A stretch of 64,000 bases of DNA, from assembly GCA_021153565.1 (NCBI GenBank), contig JAJKJU010000176.1, positions 1,128-65,127 of the forward strand. Direction: 5' to 3'. Below, one piece after another: positions 49,047-64,000 of this stretch. Source of the stretch: Rhizobacter sp. GTDB lineage: Bacteria; Pseudomonadota; Gammaproteobacteria; Burkholderiales; Burkholderiaceae_C. The stretch's first letter is position 1. Each line of letters begins with the position of its first letter. The notes below the pieces were generated by a model that was not told the DNA's origin, did no database searches, and saw nothing but the letters and a program-made list of their open reading frames with translations. The translations under genes were made by a program, and so were the position numbers.

Positions 49047-52000
49047 ATGAACATGAACATGACACAACAAGACATCCAGGCGGTGCTGGCACGCATCCGG
49101 TCGCTGCCGCCCAAACAACAACAGGCGCTGGTTCGCATGCTCAAGCAGCAGGGCGTCGACATTTCCTCGGCGCAGGCGATAGGCCGGCGGCCGGCATCGC
49201 AGGAACCGGCGCCGCTGTCGTTCGCGCAGCAACGGCTGTGGTTCCTGGCGCAGTTGGAAGGCCACAGCGCCCACTACAACATCCCGATGGCGCTGAGGCT
49301 GGCCGGCCGGCTCGACCGGCCGGCGCTGGTGCACGCGTTGTCGGCCATCGTCGAGCGCCACGAAGCGCTGCGCCCCCGCTTCGTGGAGGTGGACGGCGTG
49401 CCGTACCAGCGCACCGAGCCGGCGGTGAACTTCGCCGTGCAGGAGGAAACCCTGCCCGAAGGCACCGACCTGCGTGCCCTCTGCGAGGACGAGGCCTTGC
49501 GGCCCTTCGACCTCGGCGCCGGCAGCCTGGTGCGCATGCGCCTCGTCGCCTGCGGGCCCGAGGAGCACGTGCTGCTGGTGACGATGCACCACAGCGTGTC
49601 CGACGGCTGGTCGCTGGGCGTGTTCTTCCGTGAGCTGGTGAGCCTGTACGGTGCCTTCTCGCGCGGCGAGCCTTCGCCGCTGCAGCCCTTGCCGATCCAG
49701 TACGCCGACTATGCGCACTGGCAGCGCGAGTGGTTGTCCGGGCAGGTGCAGGAGCGACAGATCGAATACTGGAAGCAGAAGCTCGCCGGCGTCGACCCGC
49801 AGCTGATGCTGCCCACCGACCGGCCGCGCCCGCCGGTGAAGACCTACACCGGCGCCCATGAACCGCTGCAGTGCAGCGCTGCGCTGCTGGAGGGCCTGAA
49901 GGCGCTGGGCCGCGCGCACGAGAGCACGCTGTACATGACGCTGCTGTCGGTGTGGGCCGTGCTGCTGCACCGCTACAGCCGCCAGACCGACATCGCGATC
50001 GGCACGCCGCTGGCCAACCGCAACCGGCCCGAGGTGGAGAACCTCATCGGCTTCTTCGTGAACACGCAGGTGATGCGCGCCGACCTGGACGGCCAGCCGA
50101 GCTTCGCGCAGCTGCTGGCCCGCATGAAGCGCACGGCGCTGGAAGCCTACGGCCACCAGGACGTTCCCTTCGAGGCGGTGGTCGATGCCTTGCAGCTGGA
50201 GCGCAGCCTCAGCCATTCGCCGGTGTTCCATGTGATGTTCGCGCTGCAGGAGGCGCAGGCCGAGCGCAGCCATCGGCTGGCCGACCTCGAGGTGTCCTTC
50301 GTCGACTTCGACTACAAGATCACCAAGTTCGACCTCACGCTGGATTTGCGCGAAACGCCCGACGGACTCGCCGGCAGCATCGAATACAACTGCGACCTGT
50401 TCGACCGCGCCACTGTCCAGCGCATGATCCGCCACTACGTTGCGCTGCTGGAGGCGGTGGTGGCCGAGCCGCAGGCGCCGGTCTCGCGGCTGGTCTGGCT
50501 GGGCCCGCAGGAGCGCGAGCAGGTGGTGCGCACCTGGAACCCCTGCGCGGACCATGCGCCGGCGCAAGGCATGCACGAACTCTTCGAGGCGCAGGTCGCG
50601 CGCACGCCGGATGCCGTGGCGGTGAGTTGCGACGGCGCGCAGCTGAGCTATGCCGAGCTGAACCGACGCGCCAATCGCGTGGCCCATGCGTTGCGCGGGC
50701 TCGGCGTGAAGCCCGACACGCTGGTGGCGCTGTGCGTGGAGCGCTCGCTCGAGATGGTGGTGGGCCTGCTGGGCATCGTGAAGGCGGGCGGCGCCTACGT
50801 GCCGGTCGATCCGGCTTATCCGGCGCAGCGCATCCGCTACATCCTGGAGGACTCGGGCGCCGGCCTGCTGCTCACGCAGGCCGCGCTGGCGCCCCGGTTG
50901 CCCCTGGCCACGCAGCGCGTGGTGCTGCTGGACGGGACGGGGCAGGGCGGCGAGGACCTGCTGGCCGGCCAGCCGGAGACCGACATCCCGGTGGCCGAGA
51001 GCGGCCTGCGGCCCTCGAACCTGCTCTACGTCATCTACACGTCCGGCTCCACCGGCCACCCCAAGGGCGTGCTGGTGCAGCACGACAACGTGGCGCGCCT
51101 GTTCCATGCCACCGAGGCGACGTTCCGCTTCGGCGCCTCGGACACCTGGACGCTGTTCCACTCCTTCTCGTTCGACTTCTCGGTGTGGGAGCTGTGGGGC
51201 GCGCTGCTGCATGGCGGCCGGCTGGTGGTGGTGCCCAAGACGGTGGCGCAGTCGCCGTCGGAGTTCTACCGCCTGCTGGTCGACGAGAGTGTCACGGTGC
51301 TGAACCAGACGCCCTCGGCCTTCGAGCAACTGGTGGCCGTCGACCAGGCCGAGCGGGGCCGGCTGAGCCTGCGCACCGTGGTGTTCGGCGGCGAGGCGCT
51401 CAACCCGGCCATCCTTGCGCCGTGGTTCGAGCGCCATGGCGAGTCGATCGACATGGTGAACATGTCCGGCATCACCGAGACCACGGTGCACGTGACCTGC
51501 AAGCTGCTGTCGGCCGGCGACGCGGCCGGCCAGCGCAGCATCGTCGGCCGCAAGCTGCCCGACCTGCGCCTGTACGTGCTGGCCGAGCACATGGAGCCGC
51601 TGCCCGTGGGCGTGACGGGCGAGATGTACGTGGGCGGCGCCGGCGTCGCCCGCGGCTACCTGAACCGCCCCGAGCTGACGGCGCAGCGCTTCGTTGACGA
51701 CCCCTTCGCCGCGCAGCCGGGCGAGCGGCTGTACCGCACCGGCGACCTGGCGCGTTGGCTGCCCGACGGCAACCTGGAGTTCATCGGCCGCGCGGACCAC
51801 CAGGTGAAGATCCGCGGTTTCCGCATCGAGACCGGCGAGATCGAGTCCCAGCTGGCACAGAGCCCGCAGGTGCAGTCCTGCGTCGTGCTGGTGCGCGAGG
51901 ACCGTCCCGGGCAGAAGCAGCTGGTGGCCTACGTCGTGCCCAGGGAGCCGCTGCAGGACGACCTGCACCAGGCGCTCGGCCGCCACCTGCGCGAGCGGCT

Positions 52001-55000
52001 GCCCGACTACATGGTGCCGACCGCTTTCGTCGTGATGCAGGCCTTCCCGCTCACGTCCAACGGCAAGCTGGACCGCAGCGCCCTGCCGGCGCCCGACAAG
52101 ACCGCGTACGCGGCCGACGAGTACGTGACTCCGGCCACCGAGGCCGAGCGGGTGCTGGCCACGTTGTGGGCCGAGCTGCTCGGCTTCGAGCCGGGCCGCA
52201 TCAGCGCGCGCGACAACTTCTTCGCACTCGGCGGCCATTCGCTGCTGATCACCGTGCTGGTCGCACGCCTGAAGGAGAAGGGCTACGACGCCACGGTGCG
52301 CAGCGTCTTCGGCAGCGACACGCTGGCGGATCTGGCGTCGCAGATCGAACAGGGCGCTTCGAGCGAGGCCTACGTGGTGCCGCCCCACCGCGTGCCCGCC
52401 GGCTGCGAGCGGCTCACGCCCGACATGCTGACGCTCGTCACGCTCGACCAGCGCGAGCTGGATGCCGTGGCGGGCACCGTGCCGGACGGCGCCGCCAACG
52501 TGCAGGACATCTATCCGCTGGTGCCCTCGCAGCAGGGCATCCTGTTCCACCACCTCATCGATCCGGACAACGACCCCTACATCATCCCGGTGCTGCTGGC
52601 CGCAGACGGCCCCGTTGCCTGCGACGCGTTCGTGAACGCGCTGCGACGGCTGCTGGCGCGCCATGACGTGATGCGCACCGCCGTCGTCACCAGCGGCCTG
52701 CTCGAGCCGGTGCAGGTGGTGTACCGGCAGGCCGAGCTGCCGATCGAGCATCTGGTGCTCGAGCCGGGCCGGGACGCGATGGCCCAGGCGCAGGCGCTGC
52801 TGGAGCGCCCGCGCAGGATGCCGCTCGACCGGGCGCCGCTGCTCCAGCTGACGATCGCGGCCGATCCCGCCTCGCAGCGGCGCTTCATCCTGCTGAACGT
52901 GCACCACCTCATCGAAGACGCCAGCTCGCTGCGCCTGATCTTTGCCGAGCTGCGCGCCTCGATGGCGGGGCGGCTCGAGCAGATCGGGCCCGTGCCGGTG
53001 CCGTACCGGGACTTCGTGGCCCACACGCTGCACCAGGTGCGCACCAACGACGCCGAAGGCTTCTTCCGCCGCCGGCTCGCCGAGGTGTCGGAGCCGACGA
53101 TTCCGTTCCGCCTGGCCAACGTGCACGGCGACGGCCGCACCATCCGCGACCTGCGGCGCTCGCTGCCGGCGGCGCTGGATGCGTCGATCCGCCGGCAGGC
53201 GCAGCGGCTGCGCATCAGCCCGGCCAGCCTCTTCCATGCCGCCTGGTCGCTGGTGGTGGCCGGCGCGAGCGGGCGCGACGATGTGGTGTTCGGCACCGTG
53301 CTGTCGGGCCGGCTGCAGGGCGTGCCCGGCGTGGAGCGCATGCTGGGCAACTTCATCAACACCCTGCCGCTGCGCGTCGTGCTGAAGGACCGGAGCGCCC
53401 TGCAGCTGGTGCTCGACACCGACGCCGCGCTGAAGGAACTGATCGAGTACGAGCAGAGCTCGCTGATCATGGCCCAGCGCTGCAGCGGCCTCGGCAGCGA
53501 CGTGCCGCTGTTCACCTCGATGATCAACGTGCGCCACTTCGAGGGCGGCGAGGGCGAGCCGCTGCAGGAGAGCGGGGTGCGGGTGCTCGGTTCGGTGGAC
53601 CGCACCAACTACCCGCTGGGCGTGTCGGTCGACGACCTGGGCACGGCGTTCTCGGTGAACGTGCAGGTCGACGAAGCCGTCTCCACCGAGACGGTGACGG
53701 GCAGCTTCCAGGCCGCGCTGCAAGGCCTGGCCGATGCCCTGCAGGAAGGGCGCGCCGAAGCCCTGCCGGCCTTGTCGATCGACGTCGTGCCGGCGGACGA
53801 GCGCCGGCGCCAGCTGGTCGACTGGAACCGCACCGACACGCCGTATCCCGCAGACCAGGTGCTGCCCGGGCTGTTCGATGAGCAGGTGCTGCGGTCGCCC
53901 GACGCGATCGCGCTGGTCTTCGGCACCCAGCAGCTGAGCTACGCGCAACTCAATGCGCGGGCCAACAAGGTCGCGCACTTCCTGCACGAGGCCGGCGTGC
54001 GGCCGGACACCGTGGTGGGCCTGTGCATGGAACGCTCGGTGGACATGGTGGCGGGGCTGCTCGGCATCCTCAAGGCTGGCGGCGCCTACTTGCCGATCGA
54101 CCCGGCCTACCCGCGCGAGCGCATCGCCGGCATGCTGCAGGATTCAGGCATCTCGCTGCTGCTCAGCCAGACACGGGTGGCGCTGACGCTGCCGGACTTC
54201 GACGGCGAGGTGATCCACCTCGACGCGGGCGTGCGCGCCAGCGACGGCGCCAAGGTGTTGGTGAACCAGCCCGGTCACGACCTGCCGCGCGAACACGTCG
54301 GGCTGCAGCCGCACCACCTGGCCTACGTGATCTTCACTTCCGGCTCCACCGGCCGGCCCAAGGGCGTGATGGTGGAGCAGCGCGGCGTGGTGCGGCTGGT
54401 GCGCAACCCGGACTACTGCCCGTCCGGCGCGCACACGGTCATGCTGCAGCATTCGTCGATCTCGTTCGACGTCGGCTCGCAGGAAGTGCTGGGGCCGCTG
54501 CTCAACGGCGGGCGCCTGGTGCTGCACCAAGGCGAGACCAAGGACATCGTGCAGCTGCTCGACCACGTCGAGCGCCACGAGGTGAACATGATGTGCCTGT
54601 CGGCCGCCTTCCTGCCGGCCTTCGTGCAGGAGGCGGCCCATCGCCGGCTGCCGCTGCAATGCCTGTGCGTGGGGGGCGAGGCCTTCTCCGCGCGCGACGT
54701 GCTGGCCCTGTACGAGCGCCATCCGGGCCTGTCGGTGGTCAATGGCTACGGGCCGACCGAGAACAGCATCGCCTCCACCTGCCACGTGATCCCGCAGGAC
54801 ATCGCGCCGGATGCGCCGATCCCCATCGGCCGCCCGATCGCCCAGTCGACCGCCTATGTGGTGAACCGCCGGATGCGCCTGCTGCCCTGCGGCGCGGTGG
54901 GCGAGCTGTGCGTGGGCGGCGTGGGCGTGGCGCGGGGCTATCTCGGGCATCCCGAGTTGACCCGCGAGCGCTTCGTGCCCTCGCCCTTCGAGGGCAGCGA

Positions 55001-58000
55001 GGGCCAGCGCCTGTACCGGACCGGCGACATCGTGCGCTGGCGGCCCGATGGCCTGCTGGAGTTCGTGGGCCGCGTGGACGACCAGGTCAAGGTGCGCGGC
55101 TTCCGCATCGAGCTGGGCGAGATCGAGAGCGCGCTGCAGGCCCACCCGGACCTCAGGAGCGCCGTGGTCGCCACCGAGGCCGCGCAGGGCTCCGACAGCA
55201 AGCGCCTGGTGGCCTACATCTGCCCGAACGAGGACTACCTCGAGCGCGCCGCGCAGACGCTGCGGCCCGACAGCCTGGAGCGCTGGAACGAGCTGTTCGA
55301 GGACGAGTACGCCCGCGGCCGGCACGACGATGCCGCGCCGGGCGACCTGAACCTGGTGGGCTGGAACAGCAGCTACACCGGCGAGGCGATCCCCCAGGCG
55401 CAGATGGAGGAATGGGTCGACGGCGCGGTGCAGCGCATCCGGGCGCTGCGGCCGCGCCGCGTGCTGGAGATCGGTTGCGGCTCCGGCCTGCTGCTGCTGC
55501 GCTACGCCGGCGAGTGCGAATCGGTGCATGCGAGCGACATCTCCGCCGCGGCCCTGGCCGGCGTGCAGCGCGAGCTGAGCCGCCGGCGGTGGGATCACGT
55601 CAGCCTGTCGCAAGGCGACGCGCTGGACTTCTCGGCGCTCGCGGGCCGCACCTTCGACACGGTGGTCATCAACTCGGTCGTGCAGTACTACCCGAGCCGG
55701 GCCTACCTGGAGCAGGCGCTGCAGGGGCTGTGGCCCTATATCGAGGAAGGTGGCCGCATCTTCATTGGCGACGTGCGCAACGCCGACCTGATGTCGGCCC
55801 ACTTGTGCGCGGTGGAGCGCAGTCGCATGGTGGGCGGGGTGCCCGCCGCCACGCTGGCCGGCCGCCTGTACCGCCGCCGCATGCAGGAGGGCGAGCTGCT
55901 CGTCAGCCCGAGCTTCTTCATGCACCTGGCGCGGCGGCTTGCCGGCGCCGGCCGCACGGACATCCTGCTCAAGCGTGGCCTCGGCGACAACGAGATGCTG
56001 AGCTACCGCTATGACGTGGTGCTCGCCAAGGGCGCGGCGCAGCCGGCCCCGGCACTGGCCTGGTTGCCGGCGTCTTCGCCCGACGACGTGCGCCAGCTGC
56101 TGGAGCGCGGCGCCCCCGAGCGCTTTGGCGTGCATGGGCTGCGCAACCCCCGCATCCGCGAGGACGTGGCGGCCGCCGACGTGCCGGGCCGCGCACCGGC
56201 GGGCCAACGGGTCGATCCGCTGGGGCCCAGCCGCTGGTCCGAACAGGCCAGGCAGGAGGTCGAGGCCTTCGACGCGCTGATCGAGCATGCCGCGGCCCGA
56301 GGCTACCGCTGCGAAGCCACCTGGTCGCAGGACGTTCCCGATGGCGTGGACCTGCTCTTCGGCCGCAGCGAGCTGCCCGCCGTGCAGGCGCGCAGCCCCT
56401 ATGCCCAGACCTACTGGACCAACCACCCGCAGATCGCCCGGCTGGGCCAGGAGTTGTCGCGTGGCGTGAAGCAGCACCTGTCGCGCACGCTGGCCGAATA
56501 CATGGTGCCCAACATCTTCGTGGTGCTGGAGGCACTGCCGCTGACGCCCAACGGCAAGGTCGACAAGCGCGCCTTGCCGGCGCCTGAGGAGGAGGACGTG
56601 CAGAAGGAGGCCTATGCCGCACCGCGCAACGGCGAGGAACAGGCGCTGTGCCGCATGCTGCAGGAGATCCTCGGCCTGCAGCGCGTGGGCATCCGCGACG
56701 ACTTCTTCGAACTCGGCGGCCACTCGCTGCTGGCCACGCGGCTGACCGCCCGGGTCCGGCAGGAGCTGGGCAAGGATTTGCCGCTCAAGGCCGTCTTCGA
56801 CGGCCGCACGGTGGAGCGCATCGCGGCCCTGGTGCAGCAAGAGAAGGCCGAGGCGCAGACGGTGCTGCCGCGCCGCGTGGCCGCGGACTCGGGGGCGCTC
56901 GCCCCGATCTCCTTCTACCAGGAAGAGGATCTGTGGTTCCTGCGTCGGCGCCCGCACCTGGCGCTGGGCCACGACAACGTGCAGCTGGTGTTCCGCCTCA
57001 TCGGCGAGCTGGACCTCGACGCTTATGCGCGCAGCTGCCAGTTGCTGGTCGAGCGTCATGGCGTGCTGCGCACGAGCTTCGTCGAGAAGGACGGCGTGGC
57101 GTGGCAGAAAGTGAATCCGGCCGAGGGCTTTCAGGCGGGCATCGAGAGGATGCCCGACGAGAATGCGCTGGAGGAGTTCCTCAAGGCCGAGAAGGCGCGG
57201 CCATTCGAGCCGGCCGGGCCCTTCACCGTGCGCATCCACCTGTTGGTGTTCTCGGATCTGGAGCGCGTGGTGGTCGTGACGCGGCCTTGGGGCATCTTCG
57301 ATGGCTACTCGACGCCCGTCGTGCTTTTTCCCGACCTGTCCGCGATCTACGCGGCCATCAGTCTCGGGCGGGTGCCGCAGCTGCCGCCGCCGCCCCTGCA
57401 GTACGTGGACTTCGCGCACTGGCAACGCGAAACCTTCACGCCCGAGGTGCTGCAGCCCAAGATCGACTACTGGACGCAGCGGCTGGCTGGCGCGCCGCGC
57501 GACCTGCGGTTGAAGACCGACTACCGCCGGCCGTTGGTGCTCTCCGGCAAGGGCGCGGCGGTGCATTTCCTGGTCCCGCCCAAGTTCATCAAGAAGCTCA
57601 AGGACTTCGGCCGGCAGCATGACTTCTCGCTGTACGTGGTGATGCTGTCGGCCTACGCCATCTTGCTGGCCGACTACACCGACGAGACCGACATGCTGAT
57701 CGGCTCGCCGATCAGCAACCGGTCGCGGCCGGAGCTCGAGCAGATGATGGGCCATTTCGTCAACGTGCTGGTCATGCGCGCCGACGTATCGCAAGGGCAG
57801 CGCTACATCGACGTGCTGTCGCGCATGAAGGTGACGGCGCAGGAAGGGCTCAACCACGCCGACGTGCCGCTGCGCTGCGTGGTGCAGAGCCTGTCGCTGC
57901 CCACGCTGCCGGGCCAGGCCTCGTTGTTCCACGTGATGTTCAACCTGGTGACGCTGCCGGAGGACTTCTCCAACCGCTACAACAACCAGGCCATCGTGCA

Positions 58001-58244
58001 CTACCGGCCGGAGTCCGAGACGGCCAAGCTGGACCTCAACATGGCCATGCAGGACACCAACATGGGCCTGGCCGCCTCCATCGAGTACAGCATCGACCTG
58101 TTCGCCAGGACGACCATCGAAAAAATGGCGGCCCGCTACCGACAGGTGCTGGCCGACATGGTCGCCAACCCGCTGGCCCTGCTGTCCGAGCGCTCGGACC
58201 TTGCCGTCGCCCTGGAGGAGGGCGATGAAAAGCCGGCGGCCTGA
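49047..58244 (+). CDS. NRPS: C-A(Thr)-PCP-C-A(unassigned, interrupted by N-methyltransferase-type domain)-PCP-C-like (degenerate active site)
   Basis: Three in-frame ATGs at 49047, 49053 and 49059 follow GGGGAAG; the first was taken as the start. HHSVSDGWS (49587-49592). PCP GGHS Ser 52239-52241. HHLIEDASS (52902-52907). FTSGSTGRPKG. VLEIGCGSG. PCP GGHS Ser 56724-56726. The terminal C-like domain reads RPWGIFDG. Stop TGA at 58242-58244. Confidence 0.9.
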   Translation: MNMNMTQQDIQAVLARIRSLPPKQQQALVRMLKQQGVDISSAQAIGRRPASQEPAPLSFAQQRLWFLAQLEGHSAHYNIPMALRLAGRLDRPALVHALSAIVERHEALRPRFVEVDGVPYQRTEPAVNFAVQEETLPEGTDLRALCEDEALRPFDLGAGSLVRMRLVACGPEEHVLLVTMHHSVSDGWSLGVFFRELVSLYGAFSRGEPSPLQPLPIQYADYAHWQREWLSGQVQERQIEYWKQKLAGVDPQLMLPTDRPRPPVKTYTGAHEPLQCSAALLEGLKALGRAHESTLYMTLLSVWAVLLHRYSRQTDIAIGTPLANRNRPEVENLIGFFVNTQVMRADLDGQPSFAQLLARMKRTALEAYGHQDVPFEAVVDALQLERSLSHSPVFHVMFALQEAQAERSHRLADLEVSFVDFDYKITKFDLTLDLRETPDGLAGSIEYNCDLFDRATVQRMIRHYVALLEAVVAEPQAPVSRLVWLGPQEREQVVRTWNPCADHAPAQGMHELFEAQVARTPDAVAVSCDGAQLSYAELNRRANRVAHALRGLGVKPDTLVALCVERSLEMVVGLLGIVKAGGAYVPVDPAYPAQRIRYILEDSGAGLLLTQAALAPRLPLATQRVVLLDGTGQGGEDLLAGQPETDIPVAESGLRPSNLLYVIYTSGSTGHPKGVLVQHDNVARLFHATEATFRFGASDTWTLFHSFSFDFSVWELWGALLHGGRLVVVPKTVAQSPSEFYRLLVDESVTVLNQTPSAFEQLVAVDQAERGRLSLRTVVFGGEALNPAILAPWFERHGESIDMVNMSGITETTVHVTCKLLSAGDAAGQRSIVGRKLPDLRLYVLAEHMEPLPVGVTGEMYVGGAGVARGYLNRPELTAQRFVDDPFAAQPGERLYRTGDLARWLPDGNLEFIGRADHQVKIRGFRIETGEIESQLAQSPQVQSCVVLVREDRPGQKQLVAYVVPREPLQDDLHQALGRHLRERLPDYMVPTAFVVMQAFPLTSNGKLDRSALPAPDKTAYAADEYVTPATEAERVLATLWAELLGFEPGRISARDNFFALGGHSLLITVLVARLKEKGYDATVRSVFGSDTLADLASQIEQGASSEAYVVPPHRVPAGCERLTPDMLTLVTLDQRELDAVAGTVPDGAANVQDIYPLVPSQQGILFHHLIDPDNDPYIIPVLLAADGPVACDAFVNALRRLLARHDVMRTAVVTSGLLEPVQVVYRQAELPIEHLVLEPGRDAMAQAQALLERPRRMPLDRAPLLQLTIAADPASQRRFILLNVHHLIEDASSLRLIFAELRASMAGRLEQIGPVPVPYRDFVAHTLHQVRTNDAEGFFRRRLAEVSEPTIPFRLANVHGDGRTIRDLRRSLPAALDASIRRQAQRLRISPASLFHAAWSLVVAGASGRDDVVFGTVLSGRLQGVPGVERMLGNFINTLPLRVVLKDRSALQLVLDTDAALKELIEYEQSSLIMAQRCSGLGSDVPLFTSMINVRHFEGGEGEPLQESGVRVLGSVDRTNYPLGVSVDDLGTAFSVNVQVDEAVSTETVTGSFQAALQGLADALQEGRAEALPALSIDVVPADERRRQLVDWNRTDTPYPADQVLPGLFDEQVLRSPDAIALVFGTQQLSYAQLNARANKVAHFLHEAGVRPDTVVGLCMERSVDMVAGLLGILKAGGAYLPIDPAYPRERIAGMLQDSGISLLLSQTRVALTLPDFDGEVIHLDAGVRASDGAKVLVNQPGHDLPREHVGLQPHHLAYVIFTSGSTGRPKGVMVEQRGVVRLVRNPDYCPSGAHTVMLQHSSISFDVGSQEVLGPLLNGGRLVLHQGETKDIVQLLDHVERHEVNMMCLSAAFLPAFVQEAAHRRLPLQCLCVGGEAFSARDVLALYERHPGLSVVNGYGPTENSIASTCHVIPQDIAPDAPIPIGRPIAQSTAYVVNRRMRLLPCGAVGELCVGGVGVARGYLGHPELTRERFVPSPFEGSEGQRLYRTGDIVRWRPDGLLEFVGRVDDQVKVRGFRIELGEIESALQAHPDLRSAVVATEAAQGSDSKRLVAYICPNEDYLERAAQTLRPDSLERWNELFEDEYARGRHDDAAPGDLNLVGWNSSYTGEAIPQAQMEEWVDGAVQRIRALRPRRVLEIGCGSGLLLLRYAGECESVHASDISAAALAGVQRELSRRRWDHVSLSQGDALDFSALAGRTFDTVVINSVVQYYPSRAYLEQALQGLWPYIEEGGRIFIGDVRNADLMSAHLCAVERSRMVGGVPAATLAGRLYRRRMQEGELLVSPSFFMHLARRLAGAGRTDILLKRGLGDNEMLSYRYDVVLAKGAAQPAPALAWLPASSPDDVRQLLERGAPERFGVHGLRNPRIREDVAAADVPGRAPAGQRVDPLGPSRWSEQARQEVEAFDALIEHAAARGYRCEATWSQDVPDGVDLLFGRSELPAVQARSPYAQTYWTNHPQIARLGQELSRGVKQHLSRTLAEYMVPNIFVVLEALPLTPNGKVDKRALPAPEEEDVQKEAYAAPRNGEEQALCRMLQEILGLQRVGIRDDFFELGGHSLLATRLTARVRQELGKDLPLKAVFDGRTVERIAALVQQEKAEAQTVLPRRVAADSGALAPISFYQEEDLWFLRRRPHLALGHDNVQLVFRLIGELDLDAYARSCQLLVERHGVLRTSFVEKDGVAWQKVNPAEGFQAGIERMPDENALEEFLKAEKARPFEPAGPFTVRIHLLVFSDLERVVVVTRPWGIFDGYSTPVVLFPDLSAIYAAISLGRVPQLPPPPLQYVDFAHWQRETFTPEVLQPKIDYWTQRLAGAPRDLRLKTDYRRPLVLSGKGAAVHFLVPPKFIKKLKDFGRQHDFSLYVVMLSAYAILLADYTDETDMLIGSPISNRSRPELEQMMGHFVNVLVMRADVSQGQRYIDVLSRMKVTAQEGLNHADVPLRCVVQSLSLPTLPGQASLFHVMFNLVTLPEDFSNRYNNQAIVHYRPESETAKLDLNMAMQDTNMGLAASIEYSIDLFARTTIEKMAARYRQVLADMVANPLALLSERSDLAVALEEGDEKPAA
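50568..52095 (+). other. adenylation domain, code D-F-W-N-V-G-M-V-H (Thr-type)
   Basis: Read from FDFSVWELW, TVLNQTPSAF, VVFGGEAL and NMSGITETTVHVT. Confidence 0.7.
53850..56580 (+). other. adenylation domain of unassigned specificity (hand code D-V-Q-C-C-G-G-I-A), interrupted by a methyltransferase
   Basis: Read from SFDVGSQEVL, NMMCLSAAFL, LCVGGEAF and NGYGPTENSIAST. The A10 motif LTPNGKVDKRAL lies at ~56550. Confidence 0.6.
55225..56480 (+). other. NRPS N-methyltransferase-type domain inserted in the adenylation domain
   Basis: GWNSSYTGEAIP, VLEIGCGSGLLLL (~55461-55500) and NEMLSYRYDVVL correspond to the classical NRPS N-MT signature motifs. Confidence 0.7.
56900..58190 (+). other. C-terminal condensation-like domain with degenerate HHxxxDG (reads PWGIFDG)
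   Basis: VVVTRPWGIFDGYS: a Pro codon (57285-57287) and a Trp codon (57288-57290) occupy the two His positions. The rest looks like a C-domain fold (YVDFAHWQRE, IDYWTQRLAG, MGHFVNVLVMR). Confidence 0.7.
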
Positions 58245-59751: not shown

Positions 59752-61014
59752 ATGCCCCCCGTCGGTATCGAGGCAATGAACGTGTTCGGCGGCTGCGCAG
59801 TCGCGGACGTGATGGAACTGGCCCGCCACAGGCAGCTGGAACCGTCCAGGTTCGAGAACCTGCTGATGAAGGAGAAGACGGTCGCATTTCCGTTCGAGGA
59901 CCCGGTGACCTTCGCGGTCAACGCCGCCAAGCCGATCGTCGACGCGCTCTCGCCGCAGGAGCGCGACCGCATCGAACTGCTGATCACCTGCACCGAATCG
60001 GCCTTCGACTTCTCCAAGTCGCTCAGCACTTACCTGCACGACCAGCTGGGGCTGAACCGCAACTGCCGCATGTTCGAGTTGAAGCAGGCCTGCTATGCGG
60101 GCACCGCGGGCCTGCAGATGGCGGCGAACTTCATCCTCGCCGGCACCTCGCCCGGCGCCAAGGCGCTGGTGGTGGCCACCGACATCTCTCGCTTCGTCAT
60201 CGAGGAGGGTGGCGACCGGTTGTCCGCCGACTGGTCGTACGCCGAGCCCAGCGGCGGGGCCGGCGCGGTGGCCATGCTGGTCAGTGACCAGCCCACGGTG
60301 TTCCAGCTCGACGTGGGCGCCAGCGGCTACCACGGCTACGAGGTGATGGACACCTGCCGGCCGGGGGCGGACACCGAGGCCGGCGATGCCGACCTGTCGT
60401 TGCTGTCCTACCTCGACTGCCATGAGCAGTCCTTCGCCGAGTACTGCCGCCGTGTCGAGGGCGTGAACTATCGCAAGACCTTCCAGTACCTCGCGTTCCA
60501 CACGCCCTTCGGCGGCATGGTGCGAGGCGCGCACCGCTCGATGATGCGCAAGGCCGGCAACGCCACGCCGGGCGAGATCGCCGACGACTTCGAGGTGCGC
60601 GTGCGGCCGGGGCTCGCCTACTGCCAGCGGGTGGGCAACATCATGGGAGCGACCGTGTTCCTCTCGCTGGCCAGCACGGTGTGCAACGGCGACTTCAACC
60701 GCCCGGCGCGCATCGGCTGCTTCTCGTACGGGTCAGGCTGCTGCGCGGAGTTCTACAGCGGCGTGGTCACAGCCGAGGGCGCCGCACGCCTGAAGGCGAT
60801 GGACATTGCCGGCCACCTGGACCGCCGCTACCGCCTGCCGATGGACGAGTACGAGCGCCTGCTCGACGACAGCAGCCTGGTGCGTTTGGGCACCCGCAAC
60901 CAGTCCTTCGACCTGGCGGCGGCGAGCCGCATCGTGCAGGCCGCTGGTGGCACGCCGAGGCTGGTGCTGAAGGCCATCCGGGAGTTCCACCGGGAGTACG
61001 AGTGGGTGCAGTGA
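59752..61014 (+). CDS. HMG-CoA-synthase homologue for polyketide beta-branching (PksG/CurD/MupH type)
   Basis: AAGGAG (59739-59744) lies 7 nt before ATG 59752. The N-terminus MPPVGIEAMNVFGG...FENLLMKEKTVAFPFEDPVTFAVNAAKPI...IELLITCTES and the catalytic-Cys context ELKQACYAGT (Cys 60091-60093) are typical of PKS-associated HMGS. The track start at 58777 is an artefactual extension. Confidence 0.9.
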   Translation: MPPVGIEAMNVFGGCAVADVMELARHRQLEPSRFENLLMKEKTVAFPFEDPVTFAVNAAKPIVDALSPQERDRIELLITCTESAFDFSKSLSTYLHDQLGLNRNCRMFELKQACYAGTAGLQMAANFILAGTSPGAKALVVATDISRFVIEEGGDRLSADWSYAEPSGGAGAVAMLVSDQPTVFQLDVGASGYHGYEVMDTCRPGADTEAGDADLSLLSYLDCHEQSFAEYCRRVEGVNYRKTFQYLAFHTPFGGMVRGAHRSMMRKAGNATPGEIADDFEVRVRPGLAYCQRVGNIMGATVFLSLASTVCNGDFNRPARIGCFSYGSGCCAEFYSGVVTAEGAARLKAMDIAGHLDRRYRLPMDEYERLLDDSSLVRLGTRNQSFDLAAASRIVQAAGGTPRLVLKAIREFHREYEWVQ

Positions 61015-61784
61015 ACTACCGGACGCTGAAGCTGCGGCGCCAGGGGCCGGCGTGGCATGTGCAGCTGAACCGGCCGGAGGCCGGCAACACGATCGACGCC
61101 CGCATGGTGGGCGAGCTGGAGGACGTGCTGGGCACCCTCGTCCCCGGCTCGGGCGCTTCCATCCTGGTGCTCGAAGGCCAGCCGGAGGTGTTCAGCCTGG
61201 GCGCGGACTTCGGGGAAATCGGCGCGGCCGCGGCCGACGGGCAGGGCATGGCCTTCGATCCGCAGCAACTGTTCGGCGTGCTCGAGCGCCTGGCCTTCGG
61301 CGACGTGATCTCGGTGGCCCACGTGCGCGGCAAGGCCCATGCCGGTGGCGTGGGCCTCGCGGCGGCTTGCGACGTCGTGCTCGCCGACGCGAGTGCGGTG
61401 TTCAGCCTGTCCGAGCTGCTGTTCGGGCTGGCGCCGGCGGTGATCTTTCCGTTCCTCCTGCGGCGCCTGGGCTTCCAGCGCGCGCACTACCTTGCCAGCA
61501 CGACGCAGCCGGTGGGCGCGCGGCAAGCCTGTGAATGGGGTCTGGTGGACGCCTTCGAGGAACGAAGCGATCTGCTGCTGGCCCGGCACCTGTCGCGCAT
61601 GCGCCGCATGCCGGCCGCCGCGGTCGCGCGCTACAAGGCCTACGTGCGCGAGCTTGCCGCGCTGCCGGCCGGTACGCGCGAGGCCGCCTTGCGGCTGAGC
61701 AAGGCCATGTTCGCCGACCCGCAAAGCATGGCCGCGATCCGGCGCTATGCGGAGCAAGGGCTGTTTCCGTGGGAAACGGCCTGA
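61011..61784 (+). CDS. crotonase-fold enoyl-CoA hydratase, ECH1 (dehydratase) type of beta-branching cassettes (PksH/CurE type)
   Basis: GTG 61011 overlaps the HMGS stop (GTGA). LNRPEAGNTID, GADF, FSLSELLFGLAPAVIFPFLLRRLG and the C-terminal GLFPWETA match my recollection of the PksH-type ECH1, not the PksI-type ECH2. The exact start (GTG 61011 or a downstream ATG) is uncertain. Confidence 0.8.
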   Translation: MNYRTLKLRRQGPAWHVQLNRPEAGNTIDARMVGELEDVLGTLVPGSGASILVLEGQPEVFSLGADFGEIGAAAADGQGMAFDPQQLFGVLERLAFGDVISVAHVRGKAHAGGVGLAAACDVVLADASAVFSLSELLFGLAPAVIFPFLLRRLGFQRAHYLASTTQPVGARQACEWGLVDAFEERSDLLLARHLSRMRRMPAAAVARYKAYVRELAALPAGTREAALRLSKAMFADPQSMAAIRRYAEQGLFPWETA

Positions 61785-61946
61785 GAGGCTGAGAGTATTT
61801 CGATCATGCCCGCTCATCACGCCAGAAGGCGCCCGCTCGTCGTTGCAAATGCCCGCCATAGCCCGAGCTATGGCTGTGCTTTGCGCCTGGATCGGCCACC
61901 TTCTGGCGCGCTGCTCGGGCACGCTCGAAAAACTCTCAGCCTCTGA
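61781..61946. repeat. MITE/REP-like long imperfect palindrome, complete copy, in the ECH-AT intergenic region
   Basis: The 13-nt terminal inverted repeats are AGAGGCTGAGAGT (61784-61796) and ACTCTCAGCCTCT (61932-61944). An internal inverted repeat pairs CGCCAGAAGG (61820-61829) with CCTTCTGGCG (61898-61907). The central hairpin is GCCATAGC-ccga-GCTATGGC (61855-61874). By hand alignment about 52 of 71 arm positions are complementary. The ECH stop TGA (61782-61784) lies inside the repeat. Confidence 0.8.
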
Positions 61947-61974
61947 ATCCAGACATCTCTAGAAGGGAAGAAGA

Positions 61975-63906
61975 ATGAAGACCAAGACCGTATGCATGTT
62001 CCCGGGCCAAGGCTCGCAATTCGGGGGCATGGGCGAAGCACTGTTCGAGCGCTACCCCGACCTGGCGGCGCAGGCCGACGCCTGCCTGGGCTACTCGCTG
62101 CGCGAGCTGTGCGTGCGCGATCCGGACCACGTGCTCAGCCACACGCAGTACACCCAGCCCGCGCTGTACGTCGTGGGCGCGCTGGCTTACCTGGACTGGC
62201 GGGCCCAGGGCCATCCGGCGCCCGACTACGTGGCCGGTCACAGCCTGGGCGAGTACTGTGCGCTGTTCGCCGCGGGTGCGTTCGACTTCATCACCGGGCT
62301 GAAGCTGGTGAGCAGGCGCGGCGAGCTGATGAGCCGCGCGCCCAAGGGCGCGATGGCGGCCATCCTCAACATCGACCCGCCGAGCGTCGAGCGCGTGCTG
62401 GCTTCGCTGCCATTCAGGAACATCGACCTGGCCAACATCAATTCGCGCAAGCAGTGCATCATCTCCGGCCTGTACGAGGAGATCCACGCGCCCCAGCTGC
62501 AACAGGCCTTCGCCGAGGCGGGCGCAAGCGTCCTGCCGCTGAACGTGAGCGCCGCATTCCACTCCCGCTGCATGAAGGACGTGGAGGGCGAGTTCGGCCG
62601 CTTCCTCTCGCAGTTCAACTTCGGCGAGCTGAAGATCCCGGTGGTGGCCAACTACACGGCACGCCCGTATCCGTCCACCGGCTATTTGGACCTGCTGCGC
62701 TTGCAGATCTCCCATTCGGTGCGCTGGTACGAATCGGCCTCCTGGCTGCTGGCGCAAGGCTGCACCCACTTTCAAGAGCTGGGTGCCGGCGAGGTGCTTG
62801 CCAGGCTGCAGGTCAAGATCGCGGCCGATCCGCTGGTGCTGCCGCTCGACGAGGCGCCAGCCGCGGCCGCGCCATCCACGGCGCCGCGCCCCGGCGCGAA
62901 TCCGGACCTGCAACCGGGCATGCGCCCCGCGCCGCGCCGCCGGGCGAGGCTGGTGTTCATGTACGCGGGGCAGGGCAGCCAGTACTACCGCATGGGCCAG
63001 CAGCTGTACGACACCCACGAGGTGTTCCGCGGCGCCATGGACCGCTGCGCGCAGGAGTACCGCGAGCTCACCGGGCAGTCGCTGCTGGACCTGCTCTACC
63101 ACGGCCCGGGCAAGGGCACGCCCTTCGTCGAGTTGCAAGGCTCGCATGGGGCGCTGTTCAGCATCGGCCATTCGCTCACCGAAACCCTGCGGGCCGAAGG
63201 CTTCGAGCCGGACGCAGTGCTGGGGCACAGCCTGGGCGAGTACGTGGCGTGCGCCGTCGCGGGCGCCCTGGATTGGCGTCAGGCGCTGCGCCTGGTCCTG
63301 CGCCAGTCGACCCTGTTCGGGCCGCTGGTGGGGCAGGGAGGGCTGCTCAGCGTGCTGGCCGAACCGCGCTTGTTCGAGCAGCGTCCGGCACTGTTCGGCG
63401 ACCTCGCGCTCGCCGGCGTGAACTACCAGGGCAACTTCCTGCTCAGCGGCCGGCATGCGGCGCTGGAGCTGGCGCAGGCCCGGCTGGAGGATGAAGGCAT
63501 CGTCTGCATCCGGCTGCCGGTGCCGGCGGCCTTCCATTCGCCGGAACTCGATCCGTTCGAGCAAGCCTTCGTGAGCGCGGTGCGGGAGATGCCCATCCAC
63601 CGGCCGCGGCTGCCGATGTATTCGGCTGCCACCGCGGCGGTGCTCGGCTCCGAGTGGCTCGAAGACCATGCCGCTCATTTCTGGCGCGTCGTGCGCGAGC
63701 CGATCCGCTTCGACCGGCTGATCGACTGCGCGTTCGAGGAGGCGGGCGACGTCTATTTCGTGGACCTCAGTGCAAGCGGCTCCTTCGCCAACTTCATGAA
63801 GTATGGCTTCCCGGGCCGCCAGCCTTGCCGCAGCGCGATCAACCAGTTCGGCAATGACAAGGCCTCCCTGTCCGCGCTGCTCGCCGATCTGCGTGCGCTC
63901 GGCTGA
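61975..63906 (+). CDS. discrete trans-acting acyltransferase didomain (AT-AT; one half may be an acyl-hydrolase proofreader)
   Basis: ATG 61975 follows GAAGGGAAG. First half: FPGQGSQFGGMG, GHSLGE (Ser 62242-62244), SAAFHS. A Pro/Ala-rich linker spans ~62830-62945. Second half: YAGQGSQYYRMG, GHSLGE (Ser 63229-63231), PAAFHS. This is the only GQGSQ/GHSxG acyltransferase signature pair in the window. Confidence 0.9.
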   Translation: MKTKTVCMFPGQGSQFGGMGEALFERYPDLAAQADACLGYSLRELCVRDPDHVLSHTQYTQPALYVVGALAYLDWRAQGHPAPDYVAGHSLGEYCALFAAGAFDFITGLKLVSRRGELMSRAPKGAMAAILNIDPPSVERVLASLPFRNIDLANINSRKQCIISGLYEEIHAPQLQQAFAEAGASVLPLNVSAAFHSRCMKDVEGEFGRFLSQFNFGELKIPVVANYTARPYPSTGYLDLLRLQISHSVRWYESASWLLAQGCTHFQELGAGEVLARLQVKIAADPLVLPLDEAPAAAAPSTAPRPGANPDLQPGMRPAPRRRARLVFMYAGQGSQYYRMGQQLYDTHEVFRGAMDRCAQEYRELTGQSLLDLLYHGPGKGTPFVELQGSHGALFSIGHSLTETLRAEGFEPDAVLGHSLGEYVACAVAGALDWRQALRLVLRQSTLFGPLVGQGGLLSVLAEPRLFEQRPALFGDLALAGVNYQGNFLLSGRHAALELAQARLEDEGIVCIRLPVPAAFHSPELDPFEQAFVSAVREMPIHRPRLPMYSAATAAVLGSEWLEDHAAHFWRVVREPIRFDRLIDCAFEEAGDVYFVDLSASGSFANFMKYGFPGRQPCRSAINQFGNDKASLSALLADLRALG

Positions 63907-64000
63907 GAGGCTGAGAGTATTTCGATCATGCCCGCTCATCACGCCAGAAGGCGCCCGCTCGTCGTTGCAAATGCTCGCCATAGCCCGAGCTATGGCTGCG
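63903..64000. repeat. second copy of the same element, cut by the window edge
   Basis: 63903-64000 matches 61781-61878 at 96 of 98 positions. The mismatches are 61853 C vs 63975 T and 61877 T vs 63999 C. The AT-AT stop TGA (63904-63906) occupies the same repeat position as the ECH stop. Confidence 0.85.

Follow-up and report, generated by a model that had tools for sequence, protein, structure and literature searches.

Two MITE copies with IS1182-type ends occupy consecutive stop codons around the acyltransferase gene of a Rhizobacter trans-AT PKS cluster

Two near-identical repeats bracket the tandem acyltransferase gene of a trans-AT PKS cluster in a 64,000-nt stretch of Rhizobacter sp. DNA (hereafter the window), and each carries the stop codon of the gene in front of it. 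This raises the question of what these repeats are, how they came to lie on stop codons and whether they tell us anything about the arrival of the acyltransferase (AT) gene. The two direct repeats described in the initial annotation were confirmed: positions 61781-61878 and 63903-64000 are identical at 96 of 98 positions, with mismatches solely at 61853 (C/T) and 61877 (T/C), and an ungapped alignment of 61781-61876 with 63903-63998 showed 95 of 96 identical positions. Both copies open with C-TGA-GAGGC, and their TGAs (61782-61784 and 63904-63906) are the stops of the ECH and AT-AT open reading frames. The terminal pattern AGAGGCTGAGAGTWTTTCGA occurs in the 64-kb window solely at 61784(+), 61925(-) and 63906(+), where shuffled sequences lead one to expect none. 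The features of the locus are as follows.

61011-61784, + strand: ECH (enoyl-CoA hydratase) of the beta-branching cassette; 257 aa, Pfam ECH_1 at 3e-40
61782-61784, + strand: left TGA target-site duplication, which is the ECH stop codon; the orthologue has a single TGA
61785-61943, + strand: MITE copy 1, complete; 159 nt, imperfect palindrome, same orientation as ECH
61785-61803, + strand: left terminal inverted repeat GAGGCTGAGAGTATTTCGA, matching the ends of full-length IS1182-family elements (L136: GAGGCTGAGAGTTTTTC...)
61838-61889, + strand: conserved central core CGTC-GTTGCAAATGC...GCTTTGCGCC, common to MITE families with different termini
61925-61943, + strand: right terminal inverted repeat TCGAAAAACTCTCAGCCTC, its final 18 nt equal to the IS right ends in L061, L062, L064 and L136
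61944-61946, + strand: right TGA target-site duplication, in frame with the left TGA (159 nt equal 53 codons)
61947-61974, + strand: original ECH-AT spacer with ribosome-binding site AAGGGAAG, aligning with the 30-nt spacer of the orthologue
61975-63906, + strand: AT-AT, tandem double acyltransferase of the trans-AT PKS; 643 aa, Pfam Acyl_transf_1 in two stretches, 7e-73
63907-64000, + strand: MITE copy 2, first 94 nt, ended by the window edge; orientation as copy 1

The ECH start is a GTG within a GTGA overlap with the preceding gene and was placed by means of a 260-aa orthologue (L147) and by reading of the sequence. The element had been given as roughly 165 nt long; the palindrome stood, but the mobile unit was refined to 159 nt (61785-61943), the flanking TGAs being duplicated target. 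The boundaries of copy 1 follow from 32 aligned family copies and from the points at which contigs from other copies diverge. Its perfect terminal inverted repeats, GAGGCTGAGAGT and ACTCTCAGCCTC, were likewise confirmed, and about 19 nt are kept across copies. The AT-AT stop TGA (63904-63906) doubles as the left target-site duplication of copy 2, which contigs extend past 63987 as ...CTATGGCTGCGCTTTGCGCCTAGATCA. The MITE encodes no transposase and holds a single open frame of 53 codons without start-codon context. This 53-codon frame is open in all copies.

A search of Burkholderiales genomes with the 20-nt terminus revealed at least 52 loci, and hundreds of copies were present in the samples of the host, which bears out the proposal of a MITE-type dispersed intergenic element that is not confined to the two window sites. 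Across Burkholderiales the dispersed copies showed 85-95% identity; the 32 full-length copies that were aligned had 76-94% identity and exact common boundaries, 26 of them measuring 159 nt and the variants 158-204 nt. In samples holding the organism of the window, the summed depth of the element was about 400-1800 times that of its flanks, about 240 contigs fitted both window copies, and many distinct flanks started at 61777-61784 and at 61946. Assemblies split the AT gene off as a 2.0-kb contig at the repeats. The MITE is present in hundreds of copies per genome in soil Burkholderiales. No complete IS lies at any of the five single-terminus loci. L011 is a remnant that has lost internal sequence, L035 keeps a truncated left end, L009 carries another MITE that shares the ends, the 20-mer match in L019 (from an archaeal MAG) is probably due to chance, and L013 holds a transposase tail, which led to the parent IS. 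No account of this family emerged from a search of the literature on MITEs in Burkholderiales, Ralstonia or Cupriavidus and on IS1182 MITEs; the family is new, its kind is known.

The autonomous parents belong to the IS1182 family. They are 1638-1695 bp long, with a single ORF of 499-517 aa, termini identical to those of the MITE (GAGGCTGAGAGTTTTTCG) and the same duplication. The copy in L136 (358-2052) reads TGA-GAGGCTGAGAGTTTTTC...TCGAAAAACTCTCAGCCTC-TGA and encodes a 499-aa transposase with DUF772, DDE_Tnp_1 and DDE_Tnp_1_6 domains, which scored 367.4 bits against the NCBIfam model NF033551 (IS1182; cutoff 270), covering positions 2-488 of 488. Such a length with a single DDE ORF lies in the size range of the IS1182 family in ISfinder. 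Other full-length copies were found in L071, L076, L079, L096, L099, L116, L120 and L135, and 5'-truncated remnants without a left end in L060, L061-L064, L065, L059 (Variovorax) and L066 (plasmid of Methylibium PM1). Assignment of the parent to the IS1031 group of the IS5 family was rejected: members of that group have GAG ends and a 3-bp TNA duplication and measure about 0.85-0.95 kb, the parents measure 1.64-1.70 kb, and IS5 models scored 20-24 bits against cutoffs of 140-275. An IS of the parent type was present in the samples of the host at about 1-2 times host depth, and is known from these samples rather than from the genome of the window, its depth ratio differing in run X3. IS and MITE are alike solely in their terminal 19-20 nt or so, and the interior of the MITE is therefore of different origin.

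The flanks of MITE and IS define the target. TGA stands on both sides of 25 of the 32 MITE copies; the left TGA is absent in six (two through a 2-nt deletion, one with TAA, three other). In the full-length parents the flanks covary, with TGA/TGA in nine and TCA/TCA in two (L072 and L114), and since both flanks are TCA in the latter, the triplet is target DNA. A C is found at -4 in 24/26 cases and a G at +1 in 20/31. The target of the IS1182-type transposase is C-T(G/C)A-G, and the central 3 bp are duplicated on integration. The stop codon of a co-oriented ORF is occupied by 19 of the 32 MITE copies and by at least four ISs, and for both TCA-flanked ISs the occupied stop is that of a convergent gene. 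Every scorable MITE copy (31 TGA, no TCA) and nine of 11 ISs point the same way as the gene they target, a bias for which a symmetric DDE transpososome alone gives no reason.

Very probably, then, the repeats are copies of a MITE mobilised by an IS1182-family transposase, with insertion at stop codons tolerated through regeneration of the stop. The MITE would be moved in trans by the DDE transposase of an IS with the same terminal inverted repeats of about 19 nt. TGA after a C-ending codon would be the usual stop in these GC-rich genomes, and insertion there should yield TGA-element-TGA and leave the protein unaltered, so that such insertions would survive; those at other CTGAG sites within genes would be lost. 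This survival would be why the element seems to "carry" the ECH and AT-AT stops. By analogy with MITE and REP biology, the operon mRNA would include the element as a long hairpin beginning one base past the stop, and this hairpin may influence how translation terminates, how the next cistron is coupled or how the mRNA decays.

In an orthologous cluster (L147, about 90% nt identity on both sides), AT likewise follows ECH and precedes the next gene, and each junction has just one TGA and lacks the element; the AT stop TGA there is followed by 13 nt and the next gene. The window and L147 thus show a presence/absence polymorphism at two sites, and the AT-AT orthologue (P0122) shares 87% aa identity. 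From these empty sites in an unchanged gene order it follows that the two window copies inserted independently, each into one of two successive stop codons, when the ECH-AT-next-gene operon was already in place, and that the AT gene was not acquired with the elements. The initial annotation had suggested that the AT gene might owe its place to the acquisition or shuffling of a single unit. Near-identical direct copies that bracket exactly one gene, and other short contigs with a copy at each end (L046), would indeed suit repeats that arose by local duplication or that mark the ends of a composite unit by which an AT cassette was brought in or shuffled, but such an origin is now hardly conceivable and was set aside as already refuted: L147 keeps the gene order without elements, the AT gene is as diverged as the upstream genes (89.9% against 90.3%), its composition resembles that of the cluster (GC3 0.90 for the gene and 0.94 for the cluster, with a codon-frequency cosine of 0.96), and among the hundreds of copies elsewhere many are at least 99% identical to the window copies, so that the similarity of the window pair is not special. 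The same holds for its variant, an integron attC-like cassette. In attC sites the R''/R' core sites read RYYYAAC ... GTTRRRY, and cassettes are arrayed beside an integrase; on inspection neither terminus of the element fits these consensuses, and copies are dispersed singly in unrelated contexts, without arrays. Two direct 159-nt copies 2.1 kb apart would offer a legitimate substrate for homologous deletion, which creates no novel junction. Joints in DNA runs that skip about 1950 nt were considered as AT deletions and turned out to be 22-30-nt bridges joining tandem elements elsewhere.

A REPIN/REP-type or other hairpin element, moved as ssDNA by a tyrosine (HUH, RAYT-like) transposase or recombinase, would naturally give strand-specific insertion beside TGA. 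The orientation does follow the TGA-bearing strand, the entire element is one hairpin, the bottom-strand mismatches all contain G, and a CGTC tetranucleotide lies immediately 5' of the central hairpin. Against this, a DDE IS of the IS1182 family has identical termini and the same 3-bp flanks, which covary as TGA/TGA or TCA/TCA like a staggered-cut duplication; the IS has the same orientation bias, its TCA cases being stops of convergent genes. The element moreover has true terminal inverted repeats, its centre is a single hairpin and not an inverted REP doublet, and a Y1 transposase was found in none of the loci. Already largely refuted, this origin was dropped upon discovery of the DDE parent, and we consider it highly improbable. 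A paper on GTAG/CGTC REPs (PMC3733652) does not mention these genera.

In agreement with the proposed single long stem, the complete copy folds at -99.8 kcal/mol, compared with -61.6 +/- 4.3 for shuffled sequences (z = -8.84). Its 55-nt arms are 82% complementary, the perfect 8-bp apical hairpin GCCATAGC-CCGA-GCTATGGC was verified at 61855-61874, and 7 of 18 pairs of the core hairpin show both-sided changes across families. Compatible with the MITE explanation, and in our view possible although unlikely, is that the element is additionally an RNA or ssDNA module selected by the host or by itself, be it an intercistronic mRNA stabiliser, a processing site, a modulator of translation termination or a bottom-strand mobility hairpin. 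The initial annotation had likewise raised a role as mRNA stabiliser or attenuator, which the element may have. Compensatory stem changes point this way, with 34 both-sided cells against 10.3 +/- 2.6 in shuffles (0/500) and 3-16 in slid controls; the per-copy counts are non-independent, as copies have common ancestry, and DNA-level processes could also keep a palindrome. MITE families whose termini are unrelated retain the core CGTCGTTGCAAATGC...GCTTTGCGCC, with covariation in its apical stem. The stem is also asymmetric: in the consensus, each of the 11 mismatches of the outer arms sets a sense-strand C against A or T (G.T/G.A on the opposite strand), copy-specific departures are biased likewise (91 to 40), and in 26/26 copies and in four of five other families the fold of the antisense strand is more stable by about 20 kcal/mol. 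The orientation is strictly that of the upstream gene, and RNA contigs contain the element with many upstream flanks. Arguing against such a module, a scan at E <= 1 found no Rfam family, the element has no promoter-like site, its weak terminator-like site does not exceed shuffle expectation (2 sites against 1.6 in shuffles; apical hairpin with weak tail TGTGCTTTGC), and the orthologous cluster functions without the element. Mutational bias was rejected on reasoning as the source of the strand asymmetry: if cytosines were deaminated on the non-template or lagging-template strand, G.U would arise on the sense strand, the opposite of the mismatches observed. A SECIS-like reading, based on the hairpin after an in-frame UGA and the open frame, was dismissed, as hundreds of unrelated genes carry the element; it is not known to resemble bacterial SECIS elements.

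The shared core, the asymmetric stem, weak in the mRNA sense, and the strict co-orientation also suggest a reading that we hold to be doubtful, in which the central hairpin (CGTC-GTTGCAAATGC-stem-loop-GCTTTGCGCC) would be functional cargo, sitting centrally in long palindromic MITEs moved by different transposases, and the element a transposon-spread regulatory device behind stop codons or a mobility hairpin. These transposases would be those of IS1182 subgroups whose ends are GAGGCTGAGAG, GAGCCTGTGAA or GAGCCTGTCGG, and that of a Ralstonia/Cupriavidus type which is flanked by TA and ends in GTCCRCTGAATCA.

As late, independent insertions, the repeats are uninformative on the arrival of the trans-AT gene. 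Between ECH and AT, and again between AT and the gene that follows, 162 nt of strong hairpin now intervene, the ancestral spacers being 30 nt and 13 nt, and this spacing may matter for expressing or refactoring the pathway. The direct copies make deletion of the AT gene by recombination possible, and the repeats break short-read assemblies exactly at the ECH and AT genes. The family provides a clear and mechanistically explained case of stop-codon targeting: because a C-TGA-G target with a 3-bp duplication regenerates the stop, gene ends are safe landing sites in TGA-dominated, GC-rich genomes. An abundant MITE is hereby tied to the poorly characterised IS1182 family, with target and duplication defined for the subgroup; orientation bias, asymmetric stem, shared core hairpin and open frame are leads on the accommodation between host and MITE.

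Among known repeats, the BRE of Bordetella, Polaromonas and other beta-proteobacteria is intergenic and sometimes overlaps gene ends (Hot et al. 2011, PMC3110155), and the MITE resembles it as an intergenic beta-proteobacterial repeat that at times lies on gene ends. BREs measure about 90 bp, form VNTR-like tandem arrays and have neither terminal inverted repeats nor a target-site duplication; identity was rejected, the supplement sequences (TTTTTTGGCCGCGGGCCGCCCAAGGCAAAAAAGCCCCC...; PMC3110155) being unrelated to the MITE. With REPs and REPINs our element shares abundance as an extragenic palindrome, frequent positions after stops or between cistrons, persistence in a lineage and a hairpin maintained by symmetric changes. 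REP units carry a GTAG or CGTC tag, form inverted doublets (REPINs), make no target-site duplication and depend on a single-copy Y1 transposase (RAYT) flanked by repeats. The window MITE differs in its 159 nt (20-40 nt for REPs, about 70-110 nt for REPINs), its terminal inverted repeats and target-site duplication, its one central hairpin and a DDE partner instead of Y1.

Bacterial MITEs derived from DDE ISs (Correia/NEMIS in Neisseria, ERIC in enterobacteria, RUP in pneumococcus and MITEAba12) are likewise small, non-coding and intergenic, with terminal inverted repeats, a short target-site duplication, high copy number, a long hairpin once transcribed and an autonomous IS with matching ends. 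As judged from an Rfam scan that gave no match (E <= 1), the present family has no sequence similarity to Correia, ERIC, RUP or MITEAba12. It further departs from known bacterial MITEs in its IS1182-family partner, for which our literature search found no linked MITE, and in an orientation to the targeted gene that is fixed in all scored copies. Unlike TA-targeting MITEs such as Correia, whose target is TA, it uses C-T(G/C)A-G with a 3-bp duplication, and insertions consequently land in TGA stop codons. PIF/Harbinger-Tourist elements and the IS5 group make a 3-bp TNA/TWA duplication in a near-palindromic target and have abundant MITEs; the T-N-A duplication and the many MITEs are shared, and the different transposase family and the restriction of the central base to G or C set our element apart from them. 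The IS1182 and IS5 transposases are related, as judged from weak IS5 NCBIfam matches to the L136 protein. The parent is itself of the IS1182 family (NF033551), whose equivalog cutoff its transposase of about 500 aa passes, and distant full-length relatives on Rhizobium plasmids bear an IS1182-family annotation. Duplications in this family are variable or absent in ISfinder. The termini of the Burkholderiales subgroup read GAG(G/C)CTG..., its 3-bp T(G/C)A duplication is strict, and it markedly prefers stop codons, in the orientation of the gene.

The window carries two copies of a long imperfect palindrome, one on each side of the gene for a tandem double acyltransferase (AT-AT). Comparison of nucleotides 61781-61876 with 63903-63998 revealed 95 matches in 96 ungapped positions, and positions 61853 and 61877 were the sole mismatches over 98 nt. 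The terminal 20-mer has three occurrences in the 64-kb window and none in shuffled sequences. In the complete copy, the 55-nt arms are 82% complementary and the predicted fold is one long stem with an energy of -99.8 kcal/mol (z = -8.8). Both copies begin with C-TGA-GAGGC, and these TGAs end the ECH (enoyl-CoA hydratase) and AT-AT reading frames, so that the repeat, palindrome, stem and stop codons described in the initial annotation were all recovered.

Features of the window around the element
61011-61784: ECH gene, Pfam ECH_1
61785-61943: first copy of the element, complete
61975-63906: double-acyltransferase ORF, Pfam Acyl_transf_1 in two stretches, closed by the TGA that flanks the second copy
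63907 to the window end: second copy of the element, incomplete

The preceding part of the window (1-58244) encodes a very large hybrid trans-AT PKS/NRPS, with many diverged ketosynthase-like and adenylation-like module repeats that form families of 5-11 copies (60-85% identity); a 3065-aa ORF spans 49047-58244.

A search with the 20-nt terminus in one genome per species matched at least 52 stretches, nearly all in Burkholderiales; Methylibium, Rubrivivax, Rhizobacter, Piscinibacter, Ideonella and Polaromonas were among the listed genera. When the element was compared with these loci by BLAST, full-length copies appeared at 76-94% identity, with unambiguous orientation (approximately 90% identity one way versus 72% the other). 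An alignment of 32 full copies set the boundaries at GAGGCTGAGAG...CTCTCAGCCTC, and the 26 alignable copies all measure 159 nt. Rfam holds no family matching the element. An exact 20-nt terminus match in AT-rich sequence of a MAG labelled Methanosarcinales archaeon (L019 7899-7918) has no other part of the element and is probably due to chance, since a few such matches are expected in 596 Gb.

Flanking nucleotides of the 32 full copies
TGA at right flank: 31/32
TGA at left flank: 26/32
TGA at both flanks: 25/32
C at position -4, given TGA: 24/26
G at position +1, given TGA: 20/31
TCA in the orientation of the element: 0/32

Assemblies holding the AT protein contained it on 2.0-kb contigs broken exactly at the repeats. 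Three soil-metagenome runs (X1, X2 and X3) hold the organism of the window, hereafter the host, at approximately 180x, 105x and 12x. In these runs the summed depth of the element region reached roughly 400-1800x host depth, and about 240 contigs were compatible with both window copies; contigs of other copies parted from the window sequence at 61777-61784 at the left end and abruptly at 61946 at the right end. From this depth and these junction contigs we conclude that the host carries hundreds of copies.

Loci with a single terminus were mostly remnants. At one of these loci (L013) the terminus precedes the final 37 codons of an ORF, and a tblastn search with this ORF led to a longer remnant on Variovorax WDL1 plasmid 2, which ends in ...GAAAGCTTCTCAGCCTC followed by TGA and has more than 1000 relatives with DDE_Tnp_1_6 and DDE_Tnp_1 domains. 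Three further loci (L061, L062, L064) showed the ORF with ...CCGAAAAACTCTCAGCCTC and TGA after it, the final 18 nt of the element being identical to the right end of the MITE. Scanning the metagenomes with the transposase protein revealed eleven full-length elements of 1638-1695 bp. One of them (L136 358-2052) reads GAGGCTGAGAGTTTTTC...TCGAAAAACTCTCAGCCTC between two TGAs and has a single 499-aa ORF, whose product exceeds the cutoff of 270 for NCBIfam NF033551 (IS1182 family transposase) with 367 bits and contains DUF772, DDE_Tnp_1 and DDE_Tnp_1_6 domains. The flanks of the eleven ISs were TGA/TGA in nine and TCA/TCA in two (L072, L114). Because both flanks vary together, the triplet belongs to the target, which is duplicated, and lies outside the element; this gives a target of C-T(G/C)A-G with a 3-bp duplication. 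Only the terminal 19-20 nt are common to IS and MITE. An IS 91-95% identical to L136 was found in the samples of the host near host depth (215-347 versus about 180 in X1, 93-158 versus about 105 in X2); X3 departs from this depth ratio, so that linkage of IS and host in the same genome is not proven. The MITE assignment of the initial annotation holds; the element belongs to a dispersed family with IS parents and is not a local duplication.

Remnants of IS1182-family parents lie unannotated at L059 2153-2780 (Variovorax WDL1 plasmid 2), L066 2480-2800 (Methylibium petroleiphilum PM1 plasmid RPME01) and L013 3618-3870, truncated by IS1071, a Tn3-family element or a GAPDH gene. Transposase matches in the databases were mostly fragments of at most 228 aa.

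By strict criteria (in-frame long ORF, GC3 >= 0.75, GC3 > GC1 > GC2), the insertion point of 19 of the 32 MITE copies is the stop codon of a gene that lies upstream and is co-oriented; the stop codon hit by an annotated Variovorax copy is that of an acyl-CoA dehydrogenase. The stop of a co-oriented gene is also occupied by at least four full-length ISs, and that of a convergent gene by the two TCA-flanked ISs. As TGA and TCA flanks track gene direction, the strand with the stop codon can be read from the central base of the duplicated triplet. TGA after a C-ending codon would be the most frequent gene ending in these GC-rich genomes, and the duplication would restore the stop, leaving insertions harmless and able to persist. 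Targeting together with duplication would thus explain in a simple way the stop codons common to element and genes. Co-orientation with the targeted gene was seen for every scorable MITE copy and for nine of the eleven ISs (approximately 23/26 IS right ends). It is not predicted for a symmetric DDE complex; either the enzyme tells its two ends apart or reverse insertions are selected against.

The initial annotation had suggested that the AT gene may have been acquired or shuffled as a unit. The closest relative of the AT protein (P0122, 87% aa identity) is encoded in an orthologous cluster (L147) with the order ACP, KS, HMG-CoA synthase, ECH, AT-AT and a 1008-aa gene, and no element was found anywhere in L147-L149. 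Nucleotide identity to the window was 90.3% for the upstream part and 89.9% for the AT gene. Acquisition as a unit is contradicted by this same gene order without the element and by a divergence matching that of the upstream genes; the composition of the AT gene is likewise cluster-like (GC3 0.90 versus 0.94, cosine 0.96).

Junctions in the orthologous cluster and in the window
ECH to AT, L147: ...TGA + 30 nt + ATG
ECH to AT, window: ...TGA + 159 nt + TGA + 28 nt + ATG
AT to next gene, L147: ...ctcggtTGA + 13 nt + ATG
AT to next gene, window: ...ctcggcTGA, then GAGGCTGAGAG...

These empty sites imply that the two copies are independent insertions at consecutive stop codons of a pre-existing operon. 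Homologous recombination between them is possible, without a diagnostic junction; joints in the host samples were considered as AT deletions and rejected, as they represent tandem elements elsewhere.

At the insertion site the ECH C-terminus reads ...WETA* in the window (61770-61784) and ...WETAASD* in the orthologue (L147 5080-5105). The three codons are absent precisely there, by either a small deletion accompanying insertion or an unrelated indel. L147 7072-10098 is the orthologue of the gene just past the window end; its 1008-aa protein has no Pfam hit on record, and in the genome of the window the gene would begin about 13 nt past the second MITE copy. Nested or tandem copies occur at L010 ~1594-1924, L045 ~7340-7557, L040 5340-5498, L027 1380-1633, L015 and L025. 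Among them are a GAGCCTGTCGG-type MITE just past the core, the central hairpin region (at CCTAG), of a copy of the present type, a head-to-tail pair of the present type with one common TGA, and copies inserted at CTGAG within the terminal repeat of another. Tandem-element junctions are also frequent as joints in the host samples.

In the aligned copies 90.6% of stem cells are paired, and both-sided changes affected 34 cells; shuffles gave 10.3 +/- 2.6 (0 of 500), and slid controls gave 3-16. By this measure compensatory changes preserve the stem. On the sense strand, each of the 11 mismatches in the outer-arm consensus is a C.A or C.T pair, hence G.T or G.A on the opposite strand, and departures specific to single copies show the same tendency (91 versus 40). 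The antisense strand folds better by approximately 20 kcal/mol in 26/26 copies and in 4/5 other families, so that the mRNA-sense hairpin is systematically the weaker one. This would fit selection against over-stable transcript structure, or a role for the opposite strand.

The element comprises exactly 53 codons. The frame of the upstream stop is open in 26/26 copies and closed by the right TGA (window 61782-61946), frame +1 is open in 12/26 and antisense frame 0 in 13/26, and none of the remaining frames is open in more than half of the 26. Read-through or loss of the left stop would add 54 residues, because the frame is open up to the right-hand TGA. Three copies lack the left TGA (L007 3250-3408, GAA; L031 2364-2522, GGA; L053 5110-5268, AAA); upstream GC periodicity suggests a reading frame that enters the element and ends at TAG after the core, and here both a C-terminal tail and the stop codon may come from the element.

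Metatranscriptome contigs contained the element joined to many upstream genes, although these contigs are unstranded and DNA carry-over is possible. No promoter-like site was found in the element, and a terminator-like call was weak and confined to the apical hairpin. REPs within approximately 15 nt of stop codons have a reported effect. By analogy with REP, ERIC and Correia elements, a hairpin one base past the stop could slow termination or change next-cistron coupling or mRNA decay.

The central ~50 nt were detected at 83-89% identity in Cupriavidus, Ralstonia, Mitsuaria and Variovorax replicons, within palindromic MITE-like elements with the termini GAGCCTGTGAA, GAGCCTGTCGG, TCGTCCGTTCC or TA-flanked GTCCRCTGAATCA; the Ralstonia/Cupriavidus type is flanked by TA/TAG, and the GAGCCTGTGAA terminus also ends about nine IS1182 ISs. 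The core motif, CGTC-GTTGCAAATGC...GCTTTGCGCC, is kept in palindromes with unrelated arms and termini. Across families its basal sequences do not vary, and the apical stem shows covariation: 7/18 pairs are changed on both sides (GCCATAGC/GCTATGGC, GCAATAGC/GCTATTGC, GCCGTGCC/GGCACGGC, GTGAT/ATCAC).

Occurrences of the core
Window 61838-61889
L056 1555-1610
L057 1497-1556
L058 1497-1553
L023 1754-1813
L026 7645-7704
L045, in the nested copy

A MITE of approximately 150 nt in Polaromonas jejuensis NBRC 106434 (L009 121-270) has the same termini (GAGGCTGAGAGTTTTTCGA) flanked by TCA...TCA, but its interior is wholly unrelated and lacks the core hairpin; one set of transposase ends has therefore captured no fewer than two distinct interiors. 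Further study is warranted for the asymmetry of the stem, the orientation rule and the core hairpin common to several families. The element is well defined and represents a MITE family that is new but of a known kind, linked here to IS1182-family parents. A constant middle with variable ends, as seen for the core, is the opposite of an ordinary MITE.
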